Shown: piece after piece, positions 3,097-55,481 of the stretch
Layout of the letters: every line of letters starts with the position of its first letter
Numbering within the stretch: the stretch's first letter is position 1
Source: Holothuria leucospilota
Taxonomy: Eukaryota
Length of the DNA: 64,000 nt
Assembly (NCBI GenBank): GCA_029531755.1
Contig: CM055969.1
Location: forward strand, 23,815,285-23,879,284
Direction of reading: 5' to 3'
The notes under the pieces: model-generated
Told to the model about the DNA's origin: nothing
The model's input: only the letters and a program-made list of their open reading frames with translations
Databases searched by the model: none
Program-made: the position numbers and the translations under genes

Positions 3097-3922
3097 GGCT
3101 ATCGGGAGACGCCATCTAGCTATAACCCAGAGACCTTCATACAAAAAGGCTCCCATTGTAAGTTATCATAATTTTGGCTTTATTGGGAGACATGGCACCT
3201 GAATTTCCTTGGGGCAATTGAAGCGGTACGTTAATGTGTCTATCTACTTAGCTAATATTATTTCCGAGGAGCCTAATGTGTGTTGAACAAGCCCCTTCAG
3301 AAGTTCGCGCCTAGACCCCCACATTTGTAAGCCCGGCCCTTCCCAAAGAAATGAAACTGCAAGCAAGCATTATTGGTGCAGTAAGAAAAGAATTAAACTT
3401 CCTAGCAATCAGCGTTGATTGTATCTTTTTTCAGGCAAAAAATTAAATCGACAAAGGATGATCCTGCTGTCTCTCTTGAGATACTTGCAAAAGACCAAGT
3501 TCGATGAACGGCTGGTCAAGAACTACTAGCCAAGAGAATGACGTGAACAATGATTTGGTAAATAGATTGGGTTGTTTTACTTACCAGTATCAAATACACG
3601 TCCTTTCAAATGTGCAACTAAAATATTTACTCTGACGCACATCGATTTTTAGAAGTCTTAAATTCTGTTTGGGAAACTGGTCTCAATTTATCAGTTCTTT
3701 CATCTTTGCTGTTCATTGGTCCACGCGAAACGTTTGGGGTTATTGTCCGTCATGTGATCTGTCGGCCTGTAGTGTTGGGTTAGGGGGTGAGAGTGGGGTG
3801 GGGGCTGTCTGAGACGGAAGAAACTATGGACAAAGGTAAGAATAATTTGAAATAATTGATATGAAAGAAATACAAATGTCCTTCTAGCAAAGTTTGACTA
3901 TTTAGAAAGAGCGGTATCTTAA

Positions 3923-5718
3923 AGTGGGCATGACACGGCCAAAATAACTTTTGTGTATTGCAAGACTGGATACAGTATTGTATAAATTTCATTTCACACA
4001 CAGTTAAAACCTGTGCAATTCGGCGTAAATGAAATCTGAAGAAAAACGTACAAAAATCCAATTTCGAAAATTGCCGCAACAGGTCACCTGACTTTTATGA
4101 CGCAATTGGCGGGAAACACACTGCGTTATATGAGGACGCGTATCTAGATGTGGAACTAATATAACGCTGACGTAAAGTTTTCTTAGCAACTTCATGAAAA
4201 GGCTTACATCACAATACCCGCGAAACAGAGCACAAAGCGTGTTGGGTGCTTCGAGGTACATCGTTGGCCAATGCACGCGTCAATGGCAAGCGAAATGTCC
4301 AATAATTAGAAAAACCAAGTTTATCGGTCGAAAAACCAAGTTTATCGGTTGAAAAACCAGGTTTATCGGTCGAAAAACCAAGTTTATCGGTTGAAAAACC
4401 AGGTTTATCGGTCGAAAAACCAAGTTTATCGGTCGAAAAACCAAGTTTATTGGTCGAAAAACCAAGTTTATCTTTCGATATACCAGATAAATCGAAAAAC
4501 TTGGATTTTCGCCTGAAAATCTAAGTTTTTCGACCGATAAGCCAAGTTAGTTTGAAAATCTAGGTTTTTCAACCGATATACCAAGATTTGGAGATAAACT
4601 TGGTTTTTCGATCGATAAACCTGGTTTTTCGACCGATAAACTTGGTTTTTCGACCGATAATCTTGGTTTTTCGACCGATAATCTTGGTTTTTCGACCGAT
4701 AAACTTGGTTTTTCGACCGATAAACTTGGTTTTTCGATCGATAAACTTGGTTTTTCGATCGATAAACTTGGATTTTCTAATTATTGGACATTCCGTTAAG
4801 AAAAACCAAGTTTTTCTTTGGATTTCCCAGATAAGTCGAAAAACTTGGATTTTCGACTGAAAATCTAAGTTTTTCGACCGATAAGCCAAGTTATTTTGAA
4901 AATCTAGGTTTTTCAACCGATATACCAAGATTTGGAGATAAACTTGGTTTTTCGATCGATAAACCTGGTTTTTCGACCGATAAACTTGGTTTTTCGACCG
5001 ATAAACTTGGTTTTTTGATCGATAAACTTGGTTTTTCGATCGATAAACTTGGTTTTTCTAATTATTGGACATTTCGCTTGCCATACGCGTCCATATGGGC
5101 GCGCGTGTTTAGCTTCCCTACATAAGCCTCAGTAATGTTTTTGTGCACAAAGAAAGCGGTAGGCGCGCTTTACAGAACAGCTATGCCCATGCATGGACCA
5201 GGGAGTTGCTATCTAAATGACAACTTCCTGCATGGACAGTCCATAACATGCGCGCCTATACAGTGGGCTGTTCAGTGACGGTGTGATTACGAATGCCAGG
5301 GAGTTGTCATTTAGCAACTCCCTACGAATGCTAAACAGTCACCGCGCAGCGACGCATCGTTCACAATCTGGTCATTGGTCACACGCGCTGCTCTAGTACC
5401 GTAGCACAGGTGTTTGCAATGCTGTTCCAGCTAAAGCGAGTTAGCGAGCACGCACATGATTGGGTGTGTAGAACGATGGGTGAGCTGCCTAGTACAGGAC
5501 GTAGTGCTACTGACCGTGCAGCCAATGACGTCACGTCTTGAGACGCGCTCACATACGTTTTTTCGCTTTCGGATTTCAGATGGGCTGAGCCTGGCCTGTA
5601 TTTGGGAATTCACATGGGTATATATGGACGTAGTTTAGTCCGGAAAACATTCGTTTTATTTCAAGCTGTACCCAAAGATTATTTACTGAGAAACTTACTT
5701 TGGCCGTGTCATGCCCAC
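3923..5718 (+). mobile_element. Non-autonomous TIR DNA transposon. It has 21-bp perfect TIRs (AGTGGGCATGACACGGCCAAA) and is flanked by TTAA, so it is piggyBac-like. This long copy carries a ~1.35-kb internal insertion (~4230-5575) that includes a foldback satellite.
   Basis: TTAA at 3919-3922 and 5719-5722. The ends at 3923-3945 and 5699-5718 are reverse complements. The inner flanks (3923-4230 and 5575-5718) are collinear with the short copy at 13320-13743. Confidence 0.7.
4270..5075. repeat. Foldback-type element. Its terminal inverted repeats (gcaagcgaaatgtccaataattag...) enclose three blocks of a 21-bp tandem repeat (GAAAAACCAAGTTTATCGGTC). The blocks run 4296-4480 forward, 4598-4790 inverted and 4935-5040 inverted, separated by duplicated spacers.
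   Basis: Direct reading. 4280-4310 is the reverse complement of 5040-5075. There are 9 or more near-identical 21-mers per block. The spacers at 4480-4597 and 4800-4935 are near-identical. The ORF-track ORFs here (4280..4465, 4569..4928, 4588..4860) are 7-aa periodic translations of the repeat. Confidence 0.75.
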
Positions 5719-6394
5719 TTTAACAAAGTGTCAGATGTGATGAAACTTGTAATCTTTATGTTCTTATCTAGATTCAGCACTTGATGACGTCATAGAAACA
5801 ATGAATAATGTTCTTTCAATCGTCTGTGAAACTTCTGAGGTGAAGAAATGGAAATGGGTAAAGGTAAGATTATAAAATTATAGTAATGAAAAACTTAATG
5901 TTTTGCTACCGGTCTGAATACTTAAACAAGATACATCGTGACATTAAACGTGTGAGGCGATACGCCCCCCCCCCCCCACACACACACACACACGAAACAA
6001 GTCTATACGAAGATGTCATTTGAAGTAAAGAAGTACAACGTGAATAACAACTGTCTGAAACACAGTTTGATGTGCTGCATGTGGTCAATATTTTTGCATA
6101 CGCTGAGATAAATCATGGTCACTGAAACTGCAGTCTGTCAAAATGACAACTTGTCACTTTAGATAGAATGAGGTTTCTTAAATAATACCTGATGCAAAAT
6201 CACTTTGTATTTACTTTTATGTTCTCACTCAGATTCAGTAAGTGATGACGTCAAGGCAACACTTGATAATAGAAAACAGAACACTTTTTTATTTCAAACA
6301 ACTTTATTGATCATCCTTATCAACGGGGCACTTTGTTGAAGTTAATTAAACTATACATCGAATCCGTGCATACTTTTGATCAACATTCGTAATA

Positions 6395-6795
6395 GGTCTC
6401 ACCTATCGTTGTGAATATTTTCATGAGGTCTAAACATAAACCATTTTCATCGTAACTTGGTACACAGGGTCTTAATGTAGAACCATATCTTTTCGGCTTT
6501 ATTCAAATTACACTTGCAGTTTTTCTTTATAATCACTATTACAGGAAATTGCTGTACTTTCTGTTTCCAGGTCATTCCTCTTCGACTCGGACCTAGGTCT
6601 CACCTATCGTTGTGAATATTTTCATGAGGTCTAAACATAAACCATTTTCATCGTAACTTGGTACACAGGGTCTTAATGTAGAACCATATCTTTTCGGCTT
6701 TATTCAAATTACACTTGCAGTTTTTCTTTATAATCACTATTACAGGAAATTGCTGTACTTTCTGTTTCCAGGTCATTCCTCTTCGACTCGGACCT
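6395..6795 (+). repeat. Tandem duplication of 2 x 200 bp (6395-6595 and 6596-6795).
   Basis: The two units are near-identical from ggtctcacctatcgttgtg... to ...cctcttcgactcggacct. Confidence 0.85.
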
Positions 6796-7520
6796 AACTG
6801 CTACTAACATAGTGTCTAAACCATATGGCCCTCGAAGACTTATTCAGTGAAATGACTTTGATGACGTCACTGTTGACGATGACATCCTTATTGGCAAGGT
6901 AATATTTGATTGAACGTTTCTCTCTCGTTTAAAAACCTCCATGCTTTGCCTGAAAGGAAATATTTTCATATCTTGAAAAACATGTTTTATGAACATAGAG
7001 TAAAATTTATTTCGCAATAAGATAGTAGGGTATCCTAATTTCAAGAAATAAAATCCTAAGATATTTAAAATTACTGTTTTGTATCTCATGAATAATTTCT
7101 TCATCCAAGCTTTGAAATTTTCAAATGATCCAGCAGCCGTAACTTTTGTAAAGTGTAATATTTTTGAGAAGGAAAGCCGTTGCCAGAGTTTATCGGTGAC
7201 ACTGAATGGTTAAATAGTGAGTAAAACTTTTTTCTGTGGGTTCTATTTCGCTGTAATTTAACCACATTATTTACCTTTAATACAACAGAATGGCTTTCAA
7301 TTAATATGTTCCAGGATCAGCGTGAAAAATCCTGAAATACTGTAATATCTTATTGAAAATTCAAATTGTTATCTTAAATTACTCACATATCTTTTCATCT
7401 CATCAGGACGGACAATCTTGAGACTGCGAGGATATGTTTAAGTACAATAAAATTCATTTGGGCTACAAGTCTTCTCTGGAAAAAGATCTCTCTGAATACA
7501 CGTAAGTGGAAATGCACCGA

Positions 7521-7705
7521 TTTAATGTGACGTCACGCGAGTAGGATTGCCGGGCACTGAAGGGCAACATTCAGTAAGCATATTTACAGCACACGTGCAC
7601 GGCATAACCATAGATACTACTGTGACACAATGGACGTTTGCCCTTCTAAACCAAAGAGAGCGCGATCTTACCCTTCAAAACCAGAGACGCGCGATCACGT
7701 GACGT
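7521..7705 (-). repeat. Partial MITE-Y copy.
   Basis: Shares tgacgtcacgcgagt...ggcactgaagggcaa...ccatagatactactgtgacacaatggacg with 662-880. Confidence 0.5.
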
Positions 7706-11246: not shown

Positions 11247-13319
11247 TTAGAAAAACACGATTGCGCAATAAAATCACCTTGTTAGCCTTGTGCCAGTCGT
11301 TTCTTATGCTTTGAATGTACTATGTATGCAAAGAATTTTGCAAACGTTTCTGAAGGTAGTGAAAAATATTTGATTAAATAAACGCCGTATCAAACTCACA
11401 TTAAATCTGGCCTACTCCAAACTGCAAGGGCTTGTCTAACATGCACTACAATTCTGCGTATTTGCAAGCAAATGCAGTTCTAGTTAGTTCAAAGCTTTGC
11501 CAGCGATTGCGCAATTTTGCACCTAAGCCAGGTCTTACATGTACGCCCTCACCTCAGCACCAGGGCTTTAGCCAGGATTTGAAAGTAGCCGTGTCTCACT
11601 TGTTACCGATTCACAAGGAACTATTCATCTGGCGCCGTGGGCATCAGCGCGAAGCCGCTCACGGTTGGGGTCCAGAGGGCGAAGCCCACTGGAAGCAACG
11701 GCTTTTTTCACACAATTAAGGCAAAAATCATGTTCACGAAGATGCTAAAACACCTAGATTAACACTTGAATTTTTTAGGCATCCAAACATCAAAAAATGA
11801 TGCAAAATCAAACTTAACTTGGAAGGGTGGACCAAGCCATTTGTTGGCGTCCCAAAAGCCGTTCTGCTCCAATTTGGCCGTCTCAAGACGGCGAGACGCA
11901 TCGCTGGCTAAGGCCTTGCTCAGCACCCTCCCTATTGCAAAGATGCCACTCATACACAGGTGAAAAATGAAGGGTCCGCCGGAGTGTCAATTATCTGTCG
12001 GCACGCCACTTAGTCCTCCTCTTAAAGAGTGTCATGAACTGCTCCCCTAGGGATTTCGCCCAGGCTACTGCCCTGCAGGCTAAAAGTGAAATTCCGTTGA
12101 ATCCTTCAGACTGGTCTCAGTACGTACCTAAATATAGCACTGAACTTTCCAACTGGCCTGTATACGGACTCTTACTAGTGTTTTATCTGAGAAATTTCAA
12201 CACGGAAAACAGAGACTTGCAGACCACAATCCTTACTTATTCTTAGCAAGTCGGGATTTAATAAATGTTTAAACGTAATATCAACAAAATATAGCCCCAT
12301 GTATCCTCGTTGGCGTTGCCAGTAACTTTTGGGAAGTGTACAAGTAGGAAGTATAAAAACGCTGTACGTAGGTATCTGTAGGCGGCAACATTAATTGGGT
12401 TACGACGGAAGCTGTCAATTACCAGCACCAAAAAAGCACAAATCATTTTTTTTTCTTTTTGGCATCGCACACGACACAAATTCTTGGCATTTTGCCTTTC
12501 ATGCCGATTTGCTGATTAGCGTTCTCTGACTTGAGTGGCTATTAAATGTACTGCAGATTTTCCCTCTCGTGGCCCTCGCAATAGCCCCACCAAAGGGGTA
12601 TTTAATTGTCCTCCGTCCTCAGAATGAGTCCTGGTACTCTCCACCAGTGTTGAAAGAATAAAAGCTATATGATCAAAATGTCAAGGTAAACAGTTTTAGA
12701 CCCATTAAAGACAGACACTCATCACCCCAAAGTACACTTTTACTTGGGGAAAGCAAAACTCTCAGTCGGTGATTGCTCTTTGATTGACATCAAATTCAAA
12801 ACATTCAGAGTATCTCACATTACACAACATACACATAGAGTGTTGTGATTACATATTATGGCCTTTTATGCTCACCAGGATAGGCTCAAGCAATAAAGTA
12901 GGTTTGTGTCTGCACAAGGAGGAGATAAAGACAGTTATGGGAAGGGGTAGAAGTGACTTAGTTGGGTGAATTGGATTATTTTGGGAGGAGAAAATTTGCC
13001 CTTTAACTCCCTGTCATAATACCTTCAACTGTTTCTTCTTAGATTGTATATACAAGGTCGTCACGATCTCCCGTTATATTACGTTTTCACAAGGCTGTTC
13101 TGCATTGTGCACGGGTTCAGGGGCGTGCATACGCGTGTGGGGTGTGACACTCGGGGCTTTAAAAATCGAAGGTCTCTAAGTGATTCCTAGCAGTTCCTTA
13201 TAAGGGACATTTCGAGATTTTAGATATTAATCATTTAAAAAGTAGTAAAACGTAGTAAAATGTATTACAAGACGCGATTGCTTCAGCGTCCTTCTTGGGC
13301 TTTCGTTTCAGATGGTTAA

Positions 13320-13743
13320 AGTGGGTATGACACGGCCAAAGTACGTTTCTCAGTAAATATTCTTTGGGTACAGCTTGAAATAAAGCGAATGTTTTCCCGA
13401 CTAAACTACGTCCATAAACACAGTAATACGACCTTGTGAATTCCCAAATTATATGCCAGACTCAGCCCTTTTCATGAAGTCGCTTTGATAACTTTACCAA
13501 GCGTTTCATTAGTTCCACATCTATATGCGCGTCCTTAATAGCGCAGTGATTGTGCGGCCAATTGCGTCATAAAAGTCAGGTGACCTGTTGCGGCATTTTT
13601 CGAAATTGGATTTTGAACGTTTTACTTCAAATTTCATTTATGCCGAATGGTACCGGTTTTAACTGTGTGTGAGATGATATTTATAAAATACTGTATCCAA
13701 TCTTGCAATACACAAAAGTTATTTTGGCGGTTTCATGCCCACT
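13320..13743 (-). mobile_element. Short 424-bp MITE copy of the same TTAA-flanked TIR element, in opposite orientation.
   Basis: 13320-13343 AGTGGGTATGACACGGCCAAAG and 13722-13743 ...TTTCATGCCCACT, flanked by TTAA at 13316-13319 and 13744-13747. The interior is the reverse complement of 3923-4230 joined to 5575-5718. Confidence 0.7.
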
Positions 13744-15722
13744 TTAAGTCATAAATACCTCCAACATGGCAGCTTGAGTGGTATTATTGCTGCAAAACCT
13801 CATGTAATCCCTATCATCATTTGTCTGCCCACTCATTAATTCCCTGTATTATCAACTTGCTCAGCCCTAGCCGTTATTTCTAGTTAGGTTACATTATTTA
13901 AAGAAGCCCGCTGTAAAATTTAAAGTCAAATTTTAAGTTTTCGGTGTGTCTACTGTGTTTCCAGTGTCCTTTGAACCATGGAAGTACTACCGAGGTAGTA
14001 CTTCCATGTTTGAACATAGTTACGTTTCATTGCACACAAGTTTGTTATCATCTTAGGTCAATGTGGCCGTGGTCGTCTCGACTTGAAACAATTGGTTGGA
14101 AACTGGGACGTTAAACCTCATCTAACTAACTGGATCAATGTGAAATGATCGATAATGTGTTAGTTTTACCTATATGTCAGCATATGCTCAGCATCTGCTT
14201 TGGTGCTGACGAATAGTGAGTTTCGCAAGACTGTTTCAGTAATCAGGAAGAACAAAATATTGGAAATTTTCTCCTTTCAACTAGACTTGGCAAAGTCTAC
14301 CATTCAACTTGATGTTTATAAAGGTAGCTTTGGTTGATAATTACCATGCTCCTTAGTTAAAGTATATTAACTGAGTTTGGATATTTTATGTCTTTATTAT
14401 TCAAGTTTGTGTTTCATCATTTGCACATCGCACACTGTACACCCTTCTTCTTTCAAATAGGCCTAACACAGTCCAAGCAGTCAGGAATGCATGAAGGGCT
14501 GACTATGAATCGTACGGATTTTAGCGCCTGGGAAATCACACACAGTTAGGGCTCCAGATTTTTGTACAGGGAATAACTCTCGGGCTTACAGGTATAAAAG
14601 GGTTTTTCAGGGATGCTGGTGGGGTTCAACCGGCGCAGACCCATCTATTTTTTGCTGTCGGCGTTTGATACATCTAAATTTTCTAATTTCCAAGCTTTCT
14701 GTTCTCATGTCTTTATTCTTCGTTATTATTGTTGCTGAAAACGTTGGAAATTTCATTGGCCTAATTTAGAATTGTAAGGCCACTATAACCTGGGGCATCC
14801 CATATGAGGGTATCTAAATCTCCAAACGTGAGCGGAGGACTCATGCCTTTCGGATGCAAGTTCGGTGCTCTTAAGTGAGGGACTTGTACATCTCCTGTCT
14901 CCAAGCTCTGTATCCGCCCTTGCCAAGTAATGGCATTTAAGTTGGGAGTGGGGTATTTTAGGACATCTTGGGTCATGGTTGTGTGTCTGAGATTCCTACT
15001 GGGTCATGGTCCAAAAGTTAAACTACGGCAGATGTGAAACACTACTAAACTGTCTTTTAAATGTCATTTTTTGGAACGCTTGGCAAGCACCCACCTCAGC
15101 TATGCTACTTTTCTCATTATAACTTCCTTTAGGGCAGCCTGAAAGCACTTTGGAGGCATCAAATGCGCCCAGCAAAAATAGATGGGTTCGCTCTAAAATC
15201 CTATGGAACCTAACATCGTTCATCGCACAAACCCACATGCCCTCGTATCATCAAATCAACTAGCTGTTAGTCCGAGGTATTCTATTATTAAGAAAAAATG
15301 TCAAAAGTTTGATTGTTGTAGCCTGTTAAGTCCGATTTCAATGTAATTTGAAGATAAACACATGTTTCATTCTAATCCCAACAATTTTGCTAATGCCTCT
15401 GAGCTTCCGGAGGCTTTGCTCCCTGGGACCTGGACAGCACACACTCGGAGGAGGGTTCTCGCTCTTGTGGCGTCTTTGGTACTATTTATCATGATGTTCA
15501 GTTAAGTGCCACTCCTCATCACGTTTACCCCTTATATTTGAATATAGTAGAAATGAAATCATAAAGCAAACCCCACCTGCTTTCGCTTTAGGGCCACTGA
15601 CGTTTTGGACCTGCGACCTGCCGATAAGGGGAGTCGGTGTCAAAAAAGCGATCGCCAAAAATCAGTCCGCCTCCTTTTGAAAGTGTTTTTGCATGTACGC
15701 TCCTGAGAAGTGGCAACGCAAC

Positions 15723-16750: not shown

Positions 16751-16841
<91 letters not shown>
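16751..16841. repeat. (AT)n microsatellite interrupting the left arm of the PLE palindrome. Shorter (AT)n tracts lie at 16526-16545 and 16637-16680.
   Basis: Direct reading. Confidence 0.9.
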
Positions 16842-16844
<3 letters not shown>

Positions 16845-17004
16845 AAATAAATAATAATAATAAGTAGAACACACCACAAAGATGACAATACGAGAGCACA
16901 GATACGGTAACAGAATAGCGTATATTTCGGACACTCCTGTGTCCTTCTTCAGCGCAAAATGTGAAGTGAAGTTTAATTTACAAATAACAGACACAGAAAT
17001 GAGG

Positions 17005-17697
17005 TTAAACCCCTTGACGAGGGTGATAAATCACAGAGGGGAAATCGCTTAGGATGCCCAGGTCCTTGTTTAGGCCACGGGTGTGTGTGGACAGTTTTAT
17101 TACCCACTTGCTTTCGGATTTGAGTCTTTGAGTGACAGACGGGTAATTAGAACCGAGCAGAATACATCTTAAATTAGATAAAGAGTGGTTAGGTTCACTA
17201 CTGAAATGTTTTGATACAGGATAGCTTATTGATTTATCCTGCACAGTTTTCTTGTGGTTATTAAACCTCAGCCTAAATTTGGTGCCGGTCTGACCGACAT
17301 AGTTGCCTTTGTCACACAAATTGCAGCATAATAAATATACTACATTAGGCGTGTCACAATCCAGGGGAGGGGGACGGATGTTGCAAACAGTGCCGGGAGG
17401 AGTAAATGTTTCGTCCGTGATAATGAACCGACACACTTGACACCTAGGCTTGCCACACTTTTTATTGCCTATGTTCCCAACAGTAAGAAGCCTGGAGGAT
17501 GTAAGGAGAGATTTGAGGTTGGGGGGTTGCCGTCTCGCAGTTAAAGGGGGATCATCAAAAAGTTCGGAAATGGACTTGTCTGTCCGAAGAATACTGAAAT
17601 CTGAACGTATACATTTATGTAGGCCCTCAGTTTTAGGGGAATAGTCAAAGACAAGTGGGATACGTGAATTTTCGACTTTAGGTTTGTAACATAACAA
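17005..17697 (-). mobile_element. ORF of the Penelope-like element left arm. It encodes the C-terminal portion with CX2C...C Zn-finger-like motifs and a GIY-YIG endonuclease domain.
   Basis: The protein ...CGKPRCQVCRF...CNIRPPPLDCDTPNVVYLLCCNLCDKGNYVGQTGTKFRLRFNNHKKTV...SKHF...KSESKWVIKLSTHTRGLN shows the GIY (VVYLL), YIG (YVGQT), Arg (RLRFNNH), Glu and Asn motifs. These are typical of PLE GIY-YIG endonucleases. The N-terminus is truncated at the palindrome centre. Confidence 0.7.
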
Positions 17698-17769
17698 TTT
17701 ATCCCTGCGGTAAACGGAAGCTTTACTAATTCCCTAATTAGTAAAGCTTCCGTTTACCGCAGGGATAAA

Positions 17770-18462
17770 TTGTTATGTTACAAACCTAAAGTCGAAAATT
17801 CACGTATCCCACTTGTCTTTGACTATTCCCCTAAAACTGAGGGCCTACATAAATGTATACGTTCAGATTTCAGTATTCTTCGGACAGACAATTCCATTTC
17901 CGAACTTTTTGATGATCCCCCTTTAACTGCGAGACGGCAACCCCCCAACCTCAAATCTCTCCTTACATCCTCCAGGCTTCTTACTGTTGGGAACATAGGC
18001 AATAAAAAGTGTGGCAAGCCTAGGTGTCAAGTGTGTCGGTTCATTATCACGGACGAAACATTTACTCCTCCCGGCACTGTTTGCAACATCCGTCCCCCTC
18101 CCCTGGATTGTGACACGCCTAATGTAGTATATTTATTATGCTGCAATTTGTGTGACAAAGGCAACTATGTCGGTCAGACCGGCACCAAATTTAGGCTGAG
18201 GTTTAATAACCACAAGAAAACTGTGCAGGATAAATCAATAAGCTATCCTGTATCAAAACATTTCAGTAGTGAACCTAACCACTCTTTATCTAATTTAAGA
18301 TGTATTCTGCTCGGTTCTAATTACCCGTCTGTCACTCAAAGACTCAAATCCGAAAGCAAGTGGGTAATAAAACTGTCCACACACACCCGTGGCCTAAACA
18401 AGGACCTGGGCATCCTAAGCGATTTCCCCTCTGTGATTTATCACCCTCGTCAAGGGGTTTAA
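17770..18462 (+). mobile_element. ORF of the Penelope-like element right arm, a mirror copy with the GIY-YIG EN domain.
   Basis: Reverse-complement duplicate of 17005..17697. It differs by one codon (RTDNSISELF vs RTDKSISELF). Confidence 0.7.
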
Positions 18463-18648
18463 CCTCATTTCTGTGTCTGTTATTTGTAAATTAAACTTCA
18501 CTTCACATTTTGCGCTGAAGAAGGACACAGGAGTGTCCGAAATATACGCTATTCTGTTACCGTATCTGTGCTCTCGTATTGTCATCTTTGTGGTGTGTTC
18601 TACTTATTATTATTTTTATGTTTCATGGAGCATACGTGGATTTTCTCT

Positions 18649-18654
<6 letters not shown>

Positions 18655-18711
<57 letters not shown>
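18655..18711. repeat. (AT)n microsatellite at the right edge of the PLE palindrome.
   Basis: Direct reading. Confidence 0.9.
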
Positions 18712-18714
<3 letters not shown>

Positions 18715-19654: not shown

Positions 19655-20400
19655 CCAAAAGGGGACTTCAGGAGGTTTGTTGATACATACCCTTAGACAA
19701 AAAAGGCTCCTCTTTCACCTAACCAAAAATATTAAAAATGTTTGAAGCCATATAATCGGGTTCGAAAATATCCCAAAGACAACACCATTTTTGCATCTAA
19801 GTAACCTTCAAGTAACCAAAATTTCTCAAAAGACCCCTTCCCTTAGACCTATCCCCTAGAACAGCCCTCTTTTACCCAACCAAAAATTAGAATTCACGAC
19901 GTTATGAACATTTTCCAGCCATATATCAGTCAAAACTGTCCCGAAGACGGCAGCATTTTGCATCTTAGCAACCTTAAAGTAACCAAAATTTCTCACAGGA
20001 GAGGGAACACCCCTCCCTTTAGACTTCTCCCCTAGGACCGCCCTCTTTCCCCCAACCAAAAATTAGAATTCACAGTTATGAACATTTTTCAGCCATATAT
20101 ATCAGTCAAAAAATAAACCAAAGACCGCACCATTTTGCATCTTAGCACCCTTAAATTAGCAAAAATTTCTCAAAGGGAGGGGAATACCCTTCCCCTTAGA
20201 CCTCTCCCCTAAGAAAGCCCTCTTTCCCTCAACCAAAAATTAGAATTCACAAAGTTATGAACATTTTCCAGTCATATAGTCAACAAATTACCCAAAGAAC
20301 GCACCATTTTGCATCTTAGCAACCTTAAATTAGCAAAAATTTCTCAGAGGAAGGGGACGACCCCTCCCCTTAGACCCCTCCCCCAGGACGGCGATCACTC
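19655..20400 (+). repeat. Tandem satellite of ~4.3 units with a ~177-178-bp period. The unit contains aaccaaaaattagaattcac...ccattttgcatcttagcaaccttaaa...aaaatttctcaaag...ccctcccc ttagacc.
   Basis: Motif recurrence at ~19711, 19876, 20053 and 20231. A divergent 2-unit array with the same period lies at 9850-10230. Confidence 0.75.
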
Positions 20401-25337: not shown

Positions 25338-27617
25338 CTTATTGCAGGATACTCTTCAATGAAATGCTATAAAAAAGGAAATAATCTTTAAAACTGAACA
25401 TTTTTCATGAATTTGTGCGAATTGTGGCTATTTTTTAAGTTTCTAATACTCTTCACATGATATCGGCATGGCATTTGTACATCCAGAGACCGGTAAGTTT
25501 TGATATAATGTTTGTTTTGATTACTGGATAAGGTTGATTTAATTCAGCAAATGATATTCTTACAACGTATTTGCATGCACCTATTATGAAACAAGGAAAG
25601 GGAATATGGATGACGACATGGATAGGTCCGACTCCTTGTTAAGAAGCAAAAACAAATGCTGGGTTACAATGGGTAAAGAATCACATGGATGGATACCATC
25701 GAGTTGACAGGTTAGTGATGAAATGCTGCATGCACAACGTATTGCAGTGCCGTCCAAAGTGATGATGACAATGGACGATGACGTAACTGCATGTATTTTA
25801 TAATTATGCATAAACCTTACATCAAGCGAACTTGAACCAGGAGCCAGTCCAAACCGCTTTTCTCGCCAGAATACCCTGGTATTCACAAGTTACTGTATGA
25901 CCATAAGACATGTGCAATGAGCTCATGAACCCAAGTCAATGTGCACAAATCTAGGAAATTTCATAAGCACAAGTAAAGAAAATGCTCACTGAAAATTTAA
26001 AGCACTTTGGAATCGAAAATTAAGGGGGTATGACCAAGATCTTTACACGAAAATCGTAATTCACCTGGTCATATAGTTTTGAAGCAAATCAGGCGTTACA
26101 TCTCCGGGACCATGGAGTAAAATACCTTTGGCGCCCGCTTAATATCATAAAGCTCGTTCGTTTACTCAAATAATATGTTTTTAAATAGTAAACCAAACGT
26201 GAGTCTATATTGAACTTATTTGATTTCCTATGTGGTAAAAGGACGTCGAATGCAATATAGGCCTACAAGACACCACTCTTTACACAACATGAGAATATAC
26301 AGTGACGAATGCAATTGTTAATAAACTCATTTAAACTCTAGAATTTTATAGACGGTGAATTGTAATTGTTTACAGCTAATAATGGCATGCAATGCCCTTA
26401 AATAAGAGTTTCTGTAGGCCGTTTTGTCTTGAGAACGCTTTTATTTATTCATCGAGGGGGTAATGCGTCTCTGCATTGTATTACTTTCAAACAATAGAGC
26501 CAACACAATTGACGAGTTACAGCTTTTCCGTATCCACACAACGAAGGTTAATGGCAAGTCAGACATAATTGCAAACTTTCAAATCAAAACAGAGATTAGC
26601 AAACGCAGCAGGTGTGATTGTGTATCTCTTTCCAACGTAAATATTCTGTGTTAGACTCCTGCAGCCAATAAAGTGTGGCGTCCGCTGAAAGTGGATTTCT
26701 TCCCACTACAAATGGGGAAAATTTTTACATATTTCCACAGAAATCATGAACGGTGGAAAGTGCTGCTCATGTTAGGGTCAACGTTGCAGTTAGAAATGGC
26801 CCACATTCGTCCTGAGAAAAAAATCACTCCCGGCAAAGCTGAAATATGGCAGGTTTCTCGAAGCAGAACATATGTACCAACAAGGCTTTGCTATGCTTTG
26901 TTTAAGATGGCCATGACGTCTCTCCTCATATCAGTAAGATACCCATCATTTCACTTTCTTACAAGAATTTCCTAAAGCGACCGTCATAATACATTAAGGT
27001 GGACCTAAAGTCTAGAATTACGAGAATATATATTTTAGAGATTGGAAAATGAATTCCATTCATCCAAATCCCATCTTCATAGCTTATTCATTTGCTGAGA
27101 TATAAAATGTTGAAATTTATTCACTTAATTTGAAAAAGTCGATTGCGCAATAATTTGTGATGCCCTTCTTGTACAACTCACATTACCTACTTTTGTTTCC
27201 TAATGAAATTAAAATGTTTATATGACCTTGAAACATTAACCGTTCCTTTGCTTAGCATTTTGTAGGGAAAGGCCTTTTATAGTCAAGTCACCCTATAACT
27301 GTGAGACAGTGATCACATTTTGGCACAAGCTGCAGTGGCTTTCGAAAAAAACAAAGAAAAACAAAGGCTGTAATTTGAGTAGTACAAGAATGACATCACA
27401 AATTATTGCGCAATCTACCATTTCAAACTGAGTGAATAAGCTTCAACATTTTATATCTCAGCTCAGGAATGTCCTCTGAAGATGGGAGTTGGACCATCTG
27501 GATGCATTTTTCAAGCTTTGTAACATATATTTTTGAAATTTTAGACTTTAGGTACACTTTAAATGGATGACCTGAACCGTTTAAAGAATGTTCTTACCAA
27601 ATTGCCGCCTATAGAGG

Positions 27618-28385
27618 GATTTCAGTCACGTGACTTTAACCAACTAGACGCAATTTTGAAGGGCAAGATCGCGCATCTTTTTTGTTTTGAAGGGCAAGAT
27701 CGCACGTCTCTTTGGTTTTGACGGGCACGCGTCCATTGTGTCACAGTAGTATCTATGGTTATGCCGTGCGCGTGAGCTGTAAATACGCTTACTGAGTGTG
27801 TGTTTTGCCCTTCAGTGCCTGGGAATACATTGCGCGTGACGTCACATGAAATCCCTCTATAGACCTTATGCATTGACGTCACACTGATGTAATTTTGGAG
27901 GAAAACAATGAAGCACACGTGCACGATCGGCGTATTTCGCACGCACGTGTAATAGACTTACGCGCGTGTACGATTGGTTGACAAATCAGCTGTCTGCATT
28001 TGTTGGTGTAACTTGCAGTGATGCCCCATTTCCCTCCAAACGAGGGAGCAGTTTCTGCGTGTGACATCATATGTATAGGGCAAACACACACACACGCAGT
28101 AAGCTTATTTTATATAGCACACGCGCACGGCATAACCATAGATACTACTGTGACACAATGGACGAGGCGTCTCTTTGGTTTTGAAGGGCAAGATCGCGCG
28201 TCAATGGCACGCCAGATAAATCCTAAGCTTAGGATTTCTCTGGGGCACGCGTCCATTGTGTCACAGTAGTATCTATGGTTATGCCGTGTGCTTGTGCTGT
28301 AAATGAGCTTACTGCGCGTGTGGTTTGCCCTTCAGTGCTTGGGACCCCCACTCGCGTGACGTCACATGAAATCCCTCCATGGATT
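27618..28385. mobile_element. Second MITE-Y/X cluster. It contains Y(+) at 27618-27861, intact X at 27862-28080, Y(-) partial at 28085-28200 and Y(+) partial at 28255-28385.
   Basis: Direct sequence similarity to 304-1004. ORF-track ORFs 27622..27942, 28018..28269 and 28229..28420 are repeat translations that share the GFPGTEGQNTHAVS...TIDTTVTQWT pseudo-peptide. Confidence 0.6.
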
Positions 28386-29520: not shown

Positions 29521-32500
29521 ACAGAGGTTGAATGGCCCAATTAAATATATAAGACATTTGTAAGATTACGGAATTTGTAAGATGTCGTCCATAATACCAT
29601 AATAATCTCCTATTTTATGTTCTTTTCATGGAGCCCATGCTTCCCTTTTTTTCTTTTTTTTTGTGGGGGGGGGGTGAAGAGGGTAATTTCTCCCTTGTGT
29701 CCTATACTGTAGCAAGCGGCCTTTTGGGTACCGTTCATACATACACAGCTCGGAAAGCGTTTCATTCCACATTTTTAATTCCTATACACAAGTCCTTTCC
29801 ACCTATGTTATGTTAATTATGCTGGTACCTCATTACAGTTGTTACATGCATATATTTTATTTTAGCAGTACGACTTATCATAAAATCACAAAGTGGTAAG
29901 CGACGCTTGCTGTGCACAGTGAATCCCAGAATATGTAGCGACGTATGATTGACAAAAAACGAAATTGTACTAGACTAGTCAAAATGATTGTACATTTTTT
30001 TTTTGACACAAATCAATAAAGAGAAGGCAGTGCATTGTACCAATATCGCAGTTTGTCCAAAGTGATGAATCTGGCAACAAATTAGCGTAAACCTACAGTA
30101 TTAACTAATTGAACACAAATTAACTGTACACCCTATCCAGAAGCCCTTTTCCTCCATTAATTACGCAAATGTCATTTGAAGAGCGAGGATCCCTCCAGTA
30201 TCCATATCGATCCAATAATGACTAAAATTGGTATTTAACATATTGAATACATGGTGGCATTCAATGTGACGATAAGTATTGATTATTATAACAGTTACCT
30301 TGCTCGGTTTTTCTTAAGACTATGCAAATTTCAACTGTCTCAATGCGGTGGACATTCGATGCAGCTCTATATCCTTCTCAAAGAAAAGTAATAGCGACGA
30401 ACCGGGTAAATGACAGATGCATTCCCTGGGGTGACACCAGGTGGGGGAAGGGGACATTCACCTGTCGGGGAAGGCTCCCCCCCCCCGCGAAAGTTTCAAT
30501 TTGGTAGGGAAGCCTGATGGCTACGATAAAGCATGTGTTATTTCCCATGGTGGCAAGTCTCACCACACTTTCTTTTATACAAATCTCAAATTTTCACTTT
30601 TCAATAAAAAAAAGCAAAATTTTCAAAGTTCCTCTAATAAATTCCCAAATTTTACTCTCGCCATCCTTCCGGGTCGCTTTTACTGGGGCTTCGGTTTGCT
30701 GATTCATTGTCTGGGAGCTTGCCCCCGCTCACACAAATCCTGGCACTACCCCTGTGCAGCCGATATTCAAGTCTGAAAGATGTGATCTGTGGTGCAGAAT
30801 ACTCTGCCAGTGATATGCACTGAAACTGAGGCACTCCCTGTTTTGCCGGGCCTCCGAAGGATTTGAAATTGGAAGACACATAATCATATTTGGGACTGGA
30901 AAAATAAAACATATGTTGATTAATTGACCGATGAGGAAGGTCCTTTCATATGGTGGACCTATTTCGAGGGTTACATTTGTTTGTTCCAACGTCCCTGTGT
31001 TCCAACACGTAACCTCGATACTCTCAGATAGCCTTACTCTTATCTTAACACTGACTTCACATGGTCGGAATATAGAGACGTTGGAACAGAGAGCAGTCCC
31101 CATTTTGAAGGTTGTACTGTAAAGACTCGAGAATAGAACTCCAAAACGCCATTAATGCCAAGGTCATGTTAAAGTAGCCCCATAATAGTGATCAACCAAA
31201 CACATCAAGAAATAAGTATTTATGAAAAGATTTATTCACTACCAACTATGCAAAGTCGTATATGATCAAAGGCGCCATGCAAAGTTAAGTCGAGTCAAAT
31301 TAAATCAACAAAGTGTTATCAGTAAACACCAAACCAACCAGCAAAATCAAAGGAATAACTAGCTTAAAGGCAGTAGGCAGTCTCCCCAAAATTTGCTTTG
31401 AAAAATCAGCAAATTCCTGCAAATCTCCTCTTATTGCATTACAAGCACCTCTGAAGACATTTTGAACATAACTATTACAAACAATAGGTAAAGCAAGGAG
31501 AAATTCTCCTTGAATTTTACATTTCACTAACAAAAACATTGTCACATGATCAAAACAGGCCATTCATGAAGTAGAGTGACAGGGCACACTAACTCTGATT
31601 AGGCTGACTGCCTATTGCCTTTAAGAGCAAGTCAGTGAAGTTAGTTAGATGAGGTTTAACGTCCCAGTTTCCAACCAATTGGTTCAAGTCGAAACGACCA
31701 CGGCCTTTTTTCCAGTTGTGGCTCACTGGCTTGTTGCGCTACTCCATTGCTTATGCTGAGCACCAAGCACAAAGTCAGTAGGTTCCATTTTTAAAGTCTT
31801 TGCAAATCAGTGAAAGCATAAAAGTACCGAAAAATGACAATGAATATTTTCTTCTTAAAAATCAAAGTGTTATTACCTCGAATTTCTACAGGTGGACACA
31901 CATTTTAACATAACCTTTTATTTGTACTTTCAGAGAAACTGGACTGATCCCGTTAACACTTTAATTACCGAGTCACTTCCTGATACTGATAGGCGTCCTA
32001 CACCAGGTAAGAAATTTATCATTTTATGTCATTAGTCTCTCAAATAAAAGAAAGATTTTCAGCAAAGAATGGCAAATGGGATTTGAAAGACTCGGAATAC
32101 AAGGATATTATCCTACATTTGTTTGAAAATTGCCTTTAAAGGCAATTATCTCGCCCAAGGTAAGAAATTTTCAAGGTGGAATTTGTCAGGGATACAGCGG
32201 TCTACTGGGAATATCCAGGGAAGTTGTCGGGCAGTCCGGGAACCAATGGGTTGCCAGTCACTTTTTGTTGGAAAACACTTACAGGCCCCCGAAGGTAAAC
32301 CAATCATCTCAGCAATATGGCAAAATGAGGGTGATCTTAATCTAGCACGTAACTGTTCGACTATCTGTAACGTTTTAAGTTCTTGCTGTAGAGGGTTCCA
32401 GAGGGTTCTTTCTCCTTTCTTTTTGAGGGAATTTTGTTATCATCAGGTTTGTTTAAGGCCTGTTTTTCGTTTTCTTCAAATACTTTGACATTTATGGTAC

Positions 32501-41442: not shown

Positions 41443-42100
41443 ATAGCCTACAGCACAGGCAGTCCTAGCGTTATATAGTAAATACTACATATATATAATA
41501 ATGGAAAGGTAGCGCACTTCACGGCCTTTCGGTACCAACTTCGCCTAACTGAATTACGATTTTTATGCCTTAATATCCACCTTACCTCTTTTCAATACAT
41601 ACGGATGTTCAAATCGCGTGTTCCAATCACTTGAGTAGTGTCATGATTCATTTGGATCAAAAAATGTCCTCCAAAAAGCAACATTTCTCCGCGAAAATTT
41701 GGTTTCCACACTATCGCGTTCAGTGAAAAACAGAATCCGGGCCTCCCATTGGATAGTTCCACCCTCGTCATGACGTCATGACAAGGGGCCGTATACCATT
41801 CAATGGGAAAGCTGACGACTGAACGCGATAGTGTGGAAACCCAATTTTCGCGGAGAAATGTTTCTTTTTGGAAGACATTTTTTGATCCAAATGAATCATG
41901 ACACTACTCAAGTGATTGGAAGACGCGATTTGAACATCCGTATGTATTGAAAAGAGGTAAGGTGGATATTAAGGCATAAAAATTGTAATTCAGTTAGGCG
42001 AAGTTGGTACCGAAAGGCCGTGAAGTGCGCTACCTTTCCATTATTATATATATGTAGTATTTACTATATAACGCTAGGACTGCCTGTGGCCTACAGTATG
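41443..42100. repeat. Long imperfect palindrome (~320-bp arms) centred near 41770 (gtcatgacgtcatgac), in UBXN4 intron 1. Probably a foldback element or hairpin-forming MITE.
   Basis: 41455-41760 is the reverse complement of 41780-42090. For example, ggtagcgcacttcacggcctttcggtaccaacttcgcc pairs with ggcgaagttggtaccgaaaggccgtgaagtgcgctacc. Confidence 0.75.
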
Positions 42101-51500: not shown

Positions 51501-52566
51501 AAGTAGAATGCAAAATAGTTTGTCATGTCACTCTTTTGCTTACTTGAATTACTGACTTTGTTATTCTTTGCCATTCCTAAAGCCACTGCACCCTTTTCTG
51601 AAATGTGGTCAGTGTCTTTTACAGGGTGACTTGACTATGCATTCCGTCTTCTTGTAGCATGGTGTGCAAGAAAACAGTAACATATCTGAGATCATGGAAA
51701 TTTTTATATTTCAAAAAGGAAACAAAGCAGGTACTGTGAGTTGTATGAAGAGAACATTACATACAAATCGCTGTGCAATTCCCTATTGTAAATGAAGTGG
51801 ATAAAATTCAAGATAAATCAAAAAAACTGAATAAACTATGAAGATGGAAGTTGGATGTGCTAGATTCATTTTCCAACCTTTGAACAAGATATTCTTGTAA
51901 TTTCAGACTTTACTGTAGTTAAACTTAAAATGGATCAGAATTCTGTGGCTATTAATTCTGGTACCAGAGTTACATTTGGGCCATGAGCACATCATTGTTT
52001 TATTACTGTGTGTAGCTCAAAAGAATAAAATCAGAGTACAAGACACTTTTTTCCTCCTTTTTATTCAAGTATTGTATATAAACATTGACAAATACTGCAC
52101 AGTATTTCTAGGAGCACAAAACTTTTTTCGAGAAAAAAGCAAAAAACATAGCAGGTGAAAAAGTGAATGGAATACATAAATTAAGTGAATTCATAAGTTA
52201 CCAATACATATCAATATAATCATAAAAAGCACCACATAATCGTAATAACTGATCTGCTTTTTTGATCTAATTGGTTTTCTTTTCTTTTTGCATTAAACTT
52301 TTCCACATTGATTTCAAACTTTAACTTGTACAGAAATTCTTGAACTGAAAGTTGTACCTCCTTGGATTTACTTTGATAAATATGGTTCTTCATGTGTAAA
52401 ATTAAAAAGTTCAATTGGTGTTTTTTCCCTGATTAAAACCAAAAATACATCTTGTTTGGAAAAGAATTGTTTTTTGGAGAACCGACTCTTCTACATCGAA
52501 AGTAAAGCCTTAACCATAGAGAGTACAAGACACGTAAATTGCATTCTACATTCATTTCTACAATAG

Positions 52567-52859: not shown

Positions 52860-54820
52860 GTGAGATACTGTATTCAATGATAATGGCAGGGATACCATCA
52901 TCGTTGGTTGTATCTAGATGTGTATTGAACGAACATTTTGGGTCAGGGGAAATGACGTAAAAATACTTTAAAGTTCAGAGGGTGTAAGCCTCCTGAAAAA
53001 TATTTTGCACTGATACTGTCTCAAATTTATCCCTGAAAACTTTTATTGGGGTCTCCCCCCCTCCCCCTTCTCCTGCCCACTGGCTGTGCATTGGTCGCAT
53101 CTACAGAATCTCTTGTCACTACTTTTTCAGAGCAACTTTTTCTTTTATAGTTTTGCTGGTTCTGTTACCAGGCTGTATACAGTAAAAAGCTCTGGAATTT
53201 GAATGCGTCATATTTAAGGATTTAAGGCCTCAAATTATTTTCACAAGATTATGATGGAAATATGCTTGAAATTCACCTTTAGATCTTCATCTGGGGAAAA
53301 GAGTTCTTTTCATTATCATCGTCTGCACCTTGTAAAAATTGAAATGTCCAGCAAAAGTTCTGTTGTATTTCTGGTGCTTGGGAAAAGTTTGCCATCATTG
53401 AAAAGGGCTTGAAAGCTATGTGATTTTCTTCTTCAGAAAGTGGACAAATCCAGGGTAAAGTGAATTAGAAATATTTTTCAACAAACAATCAATGTTGATT
53501 ACATTTTGTTCTTTAGAAAGTGGTAACTCTTGTCGTATTTTGGTGTACTTGCAAAGTCAGTAGGCTTTAAGAGCATTTTAGGGATTTTGATCCAAAAATA
53601 ATGTGAAAAAAGTGAAACACTATGGAAAAGCTTGGCATTTATCCCATTAAGGAAATAATTCTCATAAGGCAATGCATAGATGTATGGCAAACATTGGGTT
53701 TCAGGGAAAAAAGGAGTTGGTATGTACAGGAGATGAAGAGTATTGACAAATTTACAGTTTGGCAAGGTGTTGACACCTTGATGGAAGTCATTTATAGATT
53801 TTTTGAAATTAGGTCTTCACATGCAGTCACCACAATCTCTTCTGAAAGTACAGTAGCACATAGAAGTATAAAAGTTGTTCTGCCCTCTTTCTCTGCGTAT
53901 AAGTCTATTGATGCCCTGGTTTACTCAACTTGTATTACATAGAAGCAAGTCATGTACCCCATGCACAACATCACAAGTTCATGTGCATTCTAAATTGTGG
54001 GGGGAGGGGGTAGTAAGGGGATGAGGGATAACAAAATCCCATTTATTGAGAATGACCCAGTTGACTCAGATTGTTGACTGCATTTGCTCTTTAACATTCC
54101 AATCATTTTCTTCAATATTTTGTGAAAAAGAAGAAAAACTCATTTGTTGCACATAATTAGTAATTTGAATTTTTTATTGCTTAAACCAGGTGCATGTGTT
54201 CTTACTGTAGTTCCATGGTTTATGGAGTTTGTGTTCTTTATCCTCAGGAAAATGATTATTTGTTGTTCTATTTATTGAACGATTTATACTACTCTGACCA
54301 CCAAAACTTTGAGGGAACAGTTTAAGCTGCATAAAATGTCAGCATAGCTAATGAGTGTTGTAGGGTTACACTAGGAATGAATAGTTTAGATAATGAGGTA
54401 GTAAACTAATGAAAGCAATTTTAGGTGTGTAAATTAGTAAGTTTGAAACTTTGTGCAAGCTGTACAAATTTGCACTATCCATTAATCCTGCAGCATGCCT
54501 AAATTGTTTAACATTTCAGACGTAGTTTTGACTTGAAAGGTTTAAGTGTCTTCATCGTACATACAGATAGAAGAGACCAAAAGCCTTTTTCCTTGTGGAA
54601 TGCCTAGGAATAGTATCCATTTGGTTGGTTTCAGTAATATTGTCGAATGCACAAATGAGGCAGTCTCCTAGGTGTTTATCCACAGTGTGCTAAAAGTGTG
54701 TTTGATAAGCCTGAGATAGATTTACTAACCTACACTGAAACAATCATTGAAAAACAAATATGAGCTATTTGCAACGGACTGGTTCTTATTTTTCATGATT
54801 TCATATCCTTATAATTTTAG

Positions 54821-54923
54821 GGAGATTGCAAGAATTCAGTTCCGGATGCCAGATGGAACCAAAATTTTACATCAGTTTCCATCATCAGCGACTTTGAGGG
54901 AGGCCCATCAATTTATGGCTGAG
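54821..54923 (+). CDS. UBXN4: UBXN4-like exon 7, first half of the UBX domain: (R)EIARIQFRMPDGTKILHQFPSSATLREAHQFMAE.
   Basis: Near-identical to human UBXN4 ARIQFRLPDGSSFTNQFPSDAPLEEARQFAAQ. Acceptor ttttag|G completes AGG from exon 6. Donor GAG|gtaaag. Confidence 0.75.
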
Positions 54924-55481
54924 GTAAAGTTCTTCCCAAAATATGAAACTGAAATTTGTATAACGAGTTTACTGCTTTTAATTAGAAGATTTCATGAAAT
55001 TCTAAAACATTCACTTGTCAAACTTTTGAAGGCAAGTTTTAAATTCACATAATTTTTTAAACTCTTGAATCAGTATGGCTGTGAGAGGACATCATGAACC
55101 TCCTTTAAAAAAGCTTTTCTGTTAATATTTTTTCTTTGAGTTTGAAAACTTGTGTCAATTAATATCATTACCCAGAATTCACAATTTAATATGGGACAAT
55201 GTGCCAAATGATTAGGTTAAAATAGGTAGTTGGCAAAGTATTACATCACTGAATGTCTATTGCTGTACACCCTTTTTACAGTGTTTTCCTAAACTGATAC
55301 ATTCTTTTAAGTCTCTTCTTGAACCCTTTGTGAATTTTACGTAAGTACTGCATTGGCTATGAAATTATATTAACAAGCAATGTTGGGGAGAAATCCTGCT
55401 TGATTGAAACAAAGGACATTCTCAAATGCAACTTCTGTAAATCTTTAATAAGCATGTGCTTTTCTGTCACTTTTTTCACAG

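Follow-up and report, generated by a model that had tools for sequence, protein, structure and literature searches.

The 64-kb stretch of the Holothuria leucospilota genome analysed here (the window) contains two copies of a TIR-bounded, TTAA-flanked sequence, one of which carries more than a kilobase of additional DNA. This raises the questions of which group of transposons generated them, and by what order of events the longer copy acquired its structure. The reading we favour, with a probability of roughly 60%, is that they represent a non-autonomous TTAA MITE family of this holothurian genome, with Kolobok-type ends and mobilised in trans, and that copy 1 is a composite containing nested elements. 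Finding a MITE in two copies, one with other elements inside it, is nothing unusual in an animal genome; the family, which has TTAA as its target duplication, is apparently undescribed. The features identified are listed in Table 1.

Table 1. Positions of the MITE copies and of the sequences nested in copy 1, numbered from the first base of the window
Feature	Position	Strand	Evidence and remarks
TTAA target-site duplication, left of copy 1	3919-3922		direct read; scan for TTAA-bounded TIRs
Copy 1 of MITE	3923-5719	+	TIR perfect over 21 nt; TTAA both sides
Left TIR of copy 1, AGTGGGCATGACACGGCCAAA	3923-3943	+	pattern search, 0 mismatches
Left 280 bp of copy 1 MITE body	3923-4202	+	homologous to copy 2 13743-13467; blastn 88%/285 nt, E 2e-98
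DNA in copy 1 only, absent from copy 2	4203-5581		1379 bp at one point; direct read, alignment, blastn
Foldback left flanking repeat, ACGCGTCA	4275-4282		possible 8-bp duplication; direct read
Foldback element	4283-5084		802 bp; repeat search, TRF, alignment, DNA fold
Foldback unique outer end, ATGGCAAGCGAAATGTCCAATAATTAG	leftmost, from 4283		~26 bp; evidence as for the whole element
Foldback left arm of 21-bp units	4309-4472		as for the whole element
Foldback centre	~4486-4600		as for the whole element
Foldback right arm	4601-4795		as for the whole element
Second tandem copy of foldback centre and right arm	4796-5084		as for the whole element
Foldback right flanking repeat, ACGCGTCC	5085-5092		direct read
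Micro-palindrome 1, CAGGGAGTTGCTATCTAAATGACAACTTCC (5199-5228) between two copies of TGCATGGAC	5190-5237		perfect 9-nt direct repeats 5190-5198 / 5229-5237
Micro-palindrome 2, CAGGGAGTTGTCATTTAGCAACTCCC (5297-5322) between two copies of TACGAATGC	5288-5331		perfect 9-nt direct repeats 5288-5296 / 5323-5331
Right 138 bp of copy 1 MITE body	5582-5719	+	homologous to copy 2 13468-13320; blastn 86%/154 nt
Right TIR of copy 1	5699-5719	-	pattern search, 0 mismatches (perfect)
TTAA target-site duplication, right of copy 1	5720-5723		direct read
Copy 2 of MITE with its two TTAA flanks	13316-13747	-	element proper 13320-13743 (424 bp), opposite in orientation to copy 1; direct read, alignment, blastn, pattern search, scan for TTAA-bounded TIRs
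Copy 2 TIR	13320-13340	+	pattern search, 1 mismatch to AGTGGGCATGACACGGCCAAA
Copy 2 TIR	13723-13743	-	pattern search, 2 mismatches to AGTGGGCATGACACGGCCAAA
TTAA flanks of copy 2	13316-13319 and 13744-13747		direct read

Both copies start with AGTGGG and end with CCCACT. The preliminary description of the locus, as two TTAA-bounded TIR transposons in opposite orientation, was borne out: blastn pairs 3918-4202 with 13748-13467 (88% identity, E = 2e-98) and 5582-5724 with 13468-13315 (86%), and as these matches are on opposite strands, the copies are inverted relative to one another. Identity is 86-88% across the parts in common by blastn and alignment, which amount to the whole 424 bp. A 39-nt block, TGCCGCAACAGGTCACCTGACTTTTATGACGCAATTGGC, is identical in the two; such a run is not unusual at 12% divergence (the rough expectation being ~0.2), hence no functional claim is made for it. 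Matches to AGTGGGCATGACACGGCCAAA were found four times in the window and not once in 100 shuffles, and shuffled windows contained just 0-1 TTAA-bounded TIR pairs. A perfect 21-bp TIR had been attributed to both copies, but is found only in copy 1, where the inverted repeat reaches ~29 nt, to ~3951 (31/33 positions, or 93.9%, including the TTAA, for 3919-3951 against 5723-5691 by blastn); in copy 2 the two arms depart from it at one and two positions, with 3 mismatches between the arms themselves over the 21 positions. The right end of copy 1 lies at 5719 rather than 5718, the adjacent TTAA having been misplaced by the same single base.

TTAA adjoins all four ends, and direct reading found no direct repeat beyond it; given that there are just two copies, the specificity for TTAA rests on these four ends. 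Since the palindrome TTAA includes TA, TTA and TAA, each copy taken singly is formally ambiguous, and the target duplication could be TA (Tc1/mariner-type, with a TIR of AAGTGGG) or TWA (PIF/Harbinger-type), with the outer T and A coincidental. This seems very improbable, as the outer bases complete TTAA at 4/4 ends, which would occur by chance in ~1% of cases at the base composition of the window, and a 3-bp duplication would leave the termini unequal by one base; furthermore, AAGTGGG is not known as a usual Tc1/mariner terminus.

The TTAA flanks had originally been taken to indicate the piggyBac superfamily, with the caveat that a TIR beginning AGTGGG made the assignment tentative; this caveat proved to be the important point. 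Across 157 surveyed piggyBac-like elements, the TIR starts with a highly conserved C, in the pattern C[C/A/T][C/A/T], and ends with G, and the TIR length quoted is 12-19 bp (PMC5381638). The MITE has the TTAA duplication, short TIRs and non-coding sequence of piggyBac-derived MITEs, but begins with A, ends with T and has a longer TIR of 21-29 nt. The diagnostic features of Kolobok elements are a TTAA duplication and 5'-RR...YY-3' termini, 'unlike piggyBac' (PMC9587614); all ten full-length Xenopus Kolobok elements begin with AG (PMC6004289), and the superfamily is known from Echinodermata, a sea cucumber among them (PMC9587614). Both features are found here, the duplication in two copies only, hence the combination of AG...CT termini and TTAA argues for Kolobok rather than piggyBac. 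Kolobok is therefore probably the correct superfamily, a call made from the termini that hangs on two terminal bases and the target site. Mobilisation by a piggyBac-like transposase, which likewise duplicates TTAA, would explain the sequence found at 4/4 ends and the short non-coding structure between TIRs, as is general for piggyBac MITEs; nevertheless, given the first base and length of the TIR, and the finding of no piggyBac-like ORF within the 64-kb window, we consider it unlikely. The MITE may possibly derive instead from another TTAA-preferring group, either an atypical piggyBac lineage or Sola3, itself a possible member of this category.

Two other TTAA-bounded TIR elements in the window, at 26994-27562 (GGTGGACC / AGTGTACC) and 31364-31624 (AGGCAGTAGG), likewise begin with RG, in keeping with the Kolobok-type reading. 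A third candidate, the C-starting and hence piggyBac-like sequence at 328-854, was rejected: its inverted repeat continues for 22 nt past both TTAAs, spanning 306-876, and its outer boundary is shared by a second copy at 27614-27970, making the TTAA internal.

Among characterised Kolobok elements, the Xenopus T2 MITEs (Xmix and relatives) share with the holothurian family a TTAA duplication, an AG purine start, a length of a few hundred bp and an absence of coding sequence, and also carry internal tandem repeats, as does copy 1 (PMC6004289). The right TIR of Xenopus XKol-A1 has AGTG....TGACA in common with the MITE TIR, and alignment of the Xenopus TIR AGTGATACTGACAGTA with AGTGGGCATGACACGG from the MITE gives 9/16 matches, a level not significant after multiple comparisons. 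However, T2 elements are defined by a terminal AGGRR (PMC6004289), whereas the MITE has AGTGG, with T at position 3, and hence is not a strict T2 member; its host is moreover an echinoderm, and it has no known matching transposase. The Kolobok group on record for a sea cucumber is the KolobokP lineage, characterised by long terminal direct repeats that each bear short TIRs of their own (PMC9587614), while the MITE ends have only the inverted 21-29 nt in common. KolobokP was rejected as the parent when none of three 11-nt TIR strings was found in the supplementary sequences of the paper describing it (PMC9587614).

No transposase with these TIRs was found within the 64-kb window, which has no stop-to-stop ORF longer than 255 aa, and a Pfam scan of five window ORFs gave no match. 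The largest ORFs belong to a Penelope-like element. A Penelope-like ORF in the window matches a H. leucospilota protein at 99% identity along 46% of the ORF, in agreement with the window coming from H. leucospilota or a close relative. Translations of the open frames through the MITE had no matches in a collection of 5.8 billion proteins; neither did the TIR with TTAA, or a 22-nt internal block, in JGI metagenome contigs, or the TIR in viral contigs. Prokaryotic genomes contained 14 single TIR matches, where 17 were expected (18 specified bases, 2 x 596 Gb); these were dismissed as chance-level, none being preceded by TTAA or accompanied by a partner TIR. Under the favoured Kolobok-type reading, the MITE copies, having no coding capacity, would depend for their movement on a DDE transposase acting in trans. 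This enzyme would bind the 21-29-nt TIRs and insert the element at TTAA through a 4-bp stagger, thereby duplicating the TTAA.

That copy 1 holds extra internal DNA was correctly recognised from the outset, although it amounts to 1379 bp rather than ~1350 bp. At its left junction ...GAAAAGG is followed by CTTAC..., and at its right junction ...TTCAGAT is followed by GGGCTGAG, where copy 2 reads GAAAAGGGCTGAG; the breakpoint is ambiguous by GG. The largest component is a nested foldback element, as had been proposed, with long inverted arms that account for most of its length and contain tandem sub-repeats, on either side of a short non-coding middle. Its outer arms (4283-4430 and 4937-5084) are 95% complementary, the arms overall being 92-95% complementary, and the predicted DNA fold has an energy of -307 kcal/mol, where shuffled sequences give -94 (z = -37.5). 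The 21-bp arrays, with 7.8 and ~22 copies according to TRF, are short sub-repeats of these arms, and the label of satellite is thus inappropriate. The flanking repeats ACGCGTCA and ACGCGTCC directly adjoin the arms and match at 7/8 positions; ACGCGT, however, is itself a palindrome and could instead be a continuation of the inverted repeat across a bulge of 2 nt. No second copy of the foldback was found by blastn within the 64-kb window.

The element resembles the foldback transposons Drosophila FB, Tetris and Galileo, and those of sea urchins (cited as Liebermann et al. 1983), in that its inverted arms are long and begin with a short unique stretch before the tandem sub-repeats, its middle domain is small and it has no ORF. 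Its modules are likewise rearranged or partly duplicated, and its flanking repeat may be of the 8-bp class; Tetris duplications are 8-10 bp (PMC4079207). It differs in its 21-bp unit, its size of only 0.8 kb, its single copy in the window and its flanking repeat, which is not a clean duplication, being a 7/8 match that overlaps a palindrome. To its right lie two micro-palindromic units of 26-31 bp, each between 9/9 direct repeats. They belong to one sequence family, in opposite orientations (the inverted match being 94% over 18 nt), with CAGGGAGTTGTCATTTAG as the TIR. Copy 1 therefore seems likely to be a composite. Its MITE body would house a foldback transposon, the centre and right arm of which are partly duplicated, together with two palindromic units left by a third family of elements, one making 8-9-bp duplications; all of these are set in a non-coding core of 495 bp that is rich in GC and CpG.

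This core has a GC content of 51%, compared to 39-43% in the MITE, and contains no TIR, ORF, poly(A), tRNA- or Rfam-like part, nor any duplication beyond the GG. A SINE or ncRNA origin for the extra DNA was discarded, since no tRNA genes, and no Rfam families at gathering score, occur anywhere in the window. By eye, the core has several CCAAT motifs and one TGACGTCA site. It might represent a promoter-like host fragment captured by a transposition-competent composite, the 1.8-kb copy, with its perfect TIRs and intact TTAA on both sides, having moved as is, in the manner of a Kolobok-type 'Pack-MITE' shuffling regulatory DNA; this suggestion appears improbable.

The preliminary description held the 424-bp form to be basal and all 1.38 kb to have been gained, which goes beyond the data: insertion signatures are found only at the foldback and the two palindromic units, the other 495 bp having none, and the GG junction fits deletion equally well. 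The polarity may in fact be reversed, with a long form, consisting of the MITE ends and the 495-bp core, being older, the 424-bp MITE arising from it through internal deletion during gap repair at the GG microhomology, and only the foldback and two micro-palindromes arriving later. MITEs generally arise as deletion derivatives, abortive gap repair leaves microhomologies such as the 2-nt one at the junction, and both the lack of insertion features in the core and the better preservation of the TIRs in copy 1 agree with this order. Conversely, the composition of the core is unlike that of the MITE, as expected of captured or inserted foreign DNA, and two copies provide no outgroup from which to set polarity. 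We regard the reversed order as a tentative alternative, somewhat less probable than its negation; the two copies are compatible both with insertion of the core and with its deletion to yield the short form. The issue concerns the order of events, and either answer is compatible with any superfamily.

The locus adds a TTAA-targeting MITE family, probably of Kolobok type, to the sea cucumber genome, and matters little beyond annotation. It does illustrate that piggyBac should not be inferred from TTAA flanks by themselves, as the first bases of the TIR tell Kolobok and piggyBac apart, and the nested copy 1 gives a neat illustration of how transposons insert serially at a single locus. Should long copies with the GC-rich core prove to be mobile, they would constitute an instance of DNA capture by a Kolobok-type superfamily.

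The TTAA-flanked pair of terminal inverted repeats (TIRs) in two oppositely oriented copies, as given in the preliminary description, was recovered alike by sequence reading, TIR search and blastn. In the long copy 1, pattern search and sequence reading place TIR AGTGGGCATGACACGGCCAAA at 3923-3943 (+) and 5699-5719 (-), both without mismatches, the right boundary lying one base beyond that first proposed. The same repeat had been described as perfect in both copies; this holds for copy 1, but the 424-bp copy 2 carries it with one mismatch at 13320-13340 (+) and two at 13723-13743 (-), its arms having three TIR differences between them. No match to AGTGGGCATGACACGGCCAAA occurred in dinucleotide-preserving shuffles (n = 100). 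TTAA directly abuts all four ends (3919-3922, 5720-5723, 13316-13319 and 13744-13747), and the copy 1 inverted repeat extends to around 29 nt, or 31/33 positions counting TTAA (blastn). Using blastn and alignment, 3918-4202 was found to pair with 13748-13467 (88% identity, E 2e-98) and 5582-5724 with 13468-13315 (86% identity), hence the copies are mutually inverted. They are collinear across all 424 bp, the sole difference being a 1379-bp block, 4203-5581, present in copy 1 only. Their surroundings are non-coding DNA; sequence adjoining copy 1 resembles short exons with GT/AG boundaries.

As TTAA is a palindrome, it might in formal terms belong to the TIR as its outermost part. Sequence reading found no direct repeats of at least 2 bp outside TTAA at either copy, and therefore the target duplication must fall within these bases. 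A TA duplication, as in Tc1/mariner elements, would require a coincidental outer T and A at all four ends, a chance of roughly 1%, whilst a 3-bp TWA duplication would make the termini differ by one base. When the entire window was scanned for inverted ends bounded by TTAA, four genuine elements emerged, compared with 0-1 hits in shuffled sequence. The remaining hits were rejected as internal to larger palindromes, as were the TTAA motifs at 328 and 851, internal to a palindromic repeat of around 570 bp (306-876). This repeat family occurs at least four times in the window, with related copies at 27614-27970, 7519-7696 and 28077-28383, and 31-bp tandem units at 346-419 and 27654-27727.

Features of the window
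Feature	Position	Description
Copy 1	3923-5719	long MITE copy
Foldback element	4283-5084	outer arms 4283-4430 / 4937-5084, 95% complementary; inner arms 4291-4485 / 4601-4795, 92% complementary
Palindromic unit 1	5199-5228	CAGGGAGTTGCTATCTAAATGACAACTTCC; with 9-nt flanks 5190-5237
Palindromic unit 2	5297-5322	CAGGGAGTTGTCATTTAGCAACTCCC; with 9-nt flanks 5288-5331
Tandem duplication	6393-6796	201 bp, 2.0 copies, 100% identity
Copy 2	13320-13743	short MITE copy
Penelope-like palindrome	16751-18712	2 kb, near-perfect (97.8%); two head-to-head 3' parts
GIY-YIG ORFs	17005-17697 (-), 17770-18462 (+)	230 aa, one per Penelope-like copy
Tandem array	19709-20392	177 bp, 3.6 copies, 82%
Second TTAA-bounded MITE	26994-27562	561 bp; long imperfect inverted arms; TIRs GGTGGACCTAAAGTCTA / AGTGTACCTAAAGTCTA
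Third TTAA-bounded MITE	31364-31624	253 bp; TIR AGGCAGTAGGCAGTC (15/16)
Palindromic element	41454-42088	635 bp; arms 91% complementary; termini CACAGGCAGTCC...GGACTGCCTGTG

The family had been assigned to piggyBac, a label that should be dropped. Piggybac-like elements, with TIRs of 12-19 bp, have a highly conserved C as the first TIR base (n = 157; PMC5381638), a defining feature absent from the MITE, the termini of which are 5'-AG...CT-3'. Kolobok elements have TTAA-specific 4-bp duplications and 5'-RR and YY-3' termini, 'unlike piggyBac', and are found in Echinodermata, a sea cucumber among them (PMC9587614); the MITE has both of these sequence-level features. AG termini and TTAA flanks are likewise present in 10/10 full-length Xenopus Kolobok elements, and the match of a Xenopus TIR, AGTGATACTGACAGTA, to AGTGGGCATGACACGG at 9/16 positions, not significant after multiple comparisons, is suggestive of the same affinity (PMC6004289). 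Classified on termini and target site only, the family is Kolobok-type with a probability of about 60%. It is not a member of the Xenopus T2 group in the strict sense, having AGTGG rather than the AGGRR terminal motif, nor of KolobokP, as it lacks long terminal direct repeats. The second TTAA-bounded MITE (termini GGTGGACCTAAAGT / AGTGTACCTAAAGT) and the third (AGGCAGTAGGCAGT, near the T2-like AGG terminus) also begin with RG, hence this signature is common in this genome. A degenerate relative of the second lies at around 51503-51912 (70% identity). No transposase linkable to the MITE TIRs was found in the 64-kb window, nor any homologue of the translated MITE frames in the protein collection. 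Metagenome and viral scans for the MITE sequence gave no hits, and a TIR scan of prokaryotic genomes gave 14, against 17 expected by chance, none with TTAA.

The extra 1379 bp has four components: a foldback element, two palindromic units and a 495-bp core. Each foldback arm begins on its outer side with around 26 bp of unique sequence and continues in 21-bp units (GAAAAACCAAGTTTATCGGTC), numbering 7.8 on the left and around 22 on the right, the centre and right arm being duplicated in tandem. Folded as single-stranded DNA, the element reaches -307 kcal/mol, versus -94 when shuffled (z = -37.5); with arms 5-8% diverged, it is not an assembly artefact. Its flanks, ACGCGTCA and ACGCGTCC, are 7/8 identical, fitting the 8-10-bp duplications made by foldback elements (PMC4079207), and represent at most a probable target duplication, because the repeat overlaps an ACGCGT palindrome.

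The palindromic units, 26-31 bp long, lie around 100 bp apart in opposite orientation, have hAT-like CAGGG ends and form one sequence family (CAGGGAGTTG...CAACTCCC), with no further copies in the window. Perfect 9-nt direct repeats flank each (TGCATGGAC and TACGAATGC, respectively), and each looks like one TIR of around 18-21 nt joined to around 10 nt of the opposite TIR. Possibly they are extreme deletion remnants of a larger element making 8-9-bp duplications, or what stayed in place once such an element had been excised and the gap repair had aborted; after P-element excision, similar fragments of the two TIRs stay behind between the copies of the 8-bp duplication. Alternatively, they may be unusually small elements mobile in themselves.

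Such insertion signatures justify the proposed nested transposition for the foldback element and both units, but the core has none. Its GC content is 51% and CpG observed/expected 1.17, compared with 39.5% and 0.67 for the window; no ORF, TIR, tRNA- or Rfam-like part was found in it, nor a second copy in the window (blastn). The copy 1 junctions, GAAAAGG/CTTAC and AGAT/GGGCTGAG, share a 2-nt microhomology relative to GAAAAGGGCTGAG in copy 2. This GG fits an origin of the short form by deletion during gap repair, a reading judged less likely than not, and fits insertion with GG duplication equally well. With two copies and no outgroup, polarity may be read either way, and the 424-bp form may or may not be 'basal'.

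The window as a whole is repeat-rich and eukaryotic. One Penelope-like ORF matches a Holothuria leucospilota protein at 99% identity across 46% of the ORF, and other proteins of H. leucospilota and of a crinoid at 50-75%, which places the window in H. leucospilota or a very close relative; (AT)n microsatellites lie on either side of the palindrome. The 635-bp element, palindromic almost throughout, resembles a hairpin MITE of hAT type, and an exact 8-bp repeat, GCCTACAG, borders it in direct orientation on either side. Judged by eye, open frames at around 53-55 kb (+), such as 54729-55049, resemble exons of a UBX-domain protein, with a charged coiled-coil (...EQIARDRAEKDAKFAAAKAEKERMM...) and ARIQFRMPDGTKILHQFPSSATLREAHQFMAE.

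Copies 1 and 2 encode nothing; a transposase supplied in trans would recognise the MITE TIRs and excise the element, integration following at TTAA with a 4-bp stagger. Copy 1, whose TIRs are perfect and whose TTAA flanks are intact, may still serve as a substrate. The family is an apparently undescribed, TTAA-targeting one, probably of Kolobok type; the MITE is a real but ordinary feature, and copy 1 is a landing pad for other elements.
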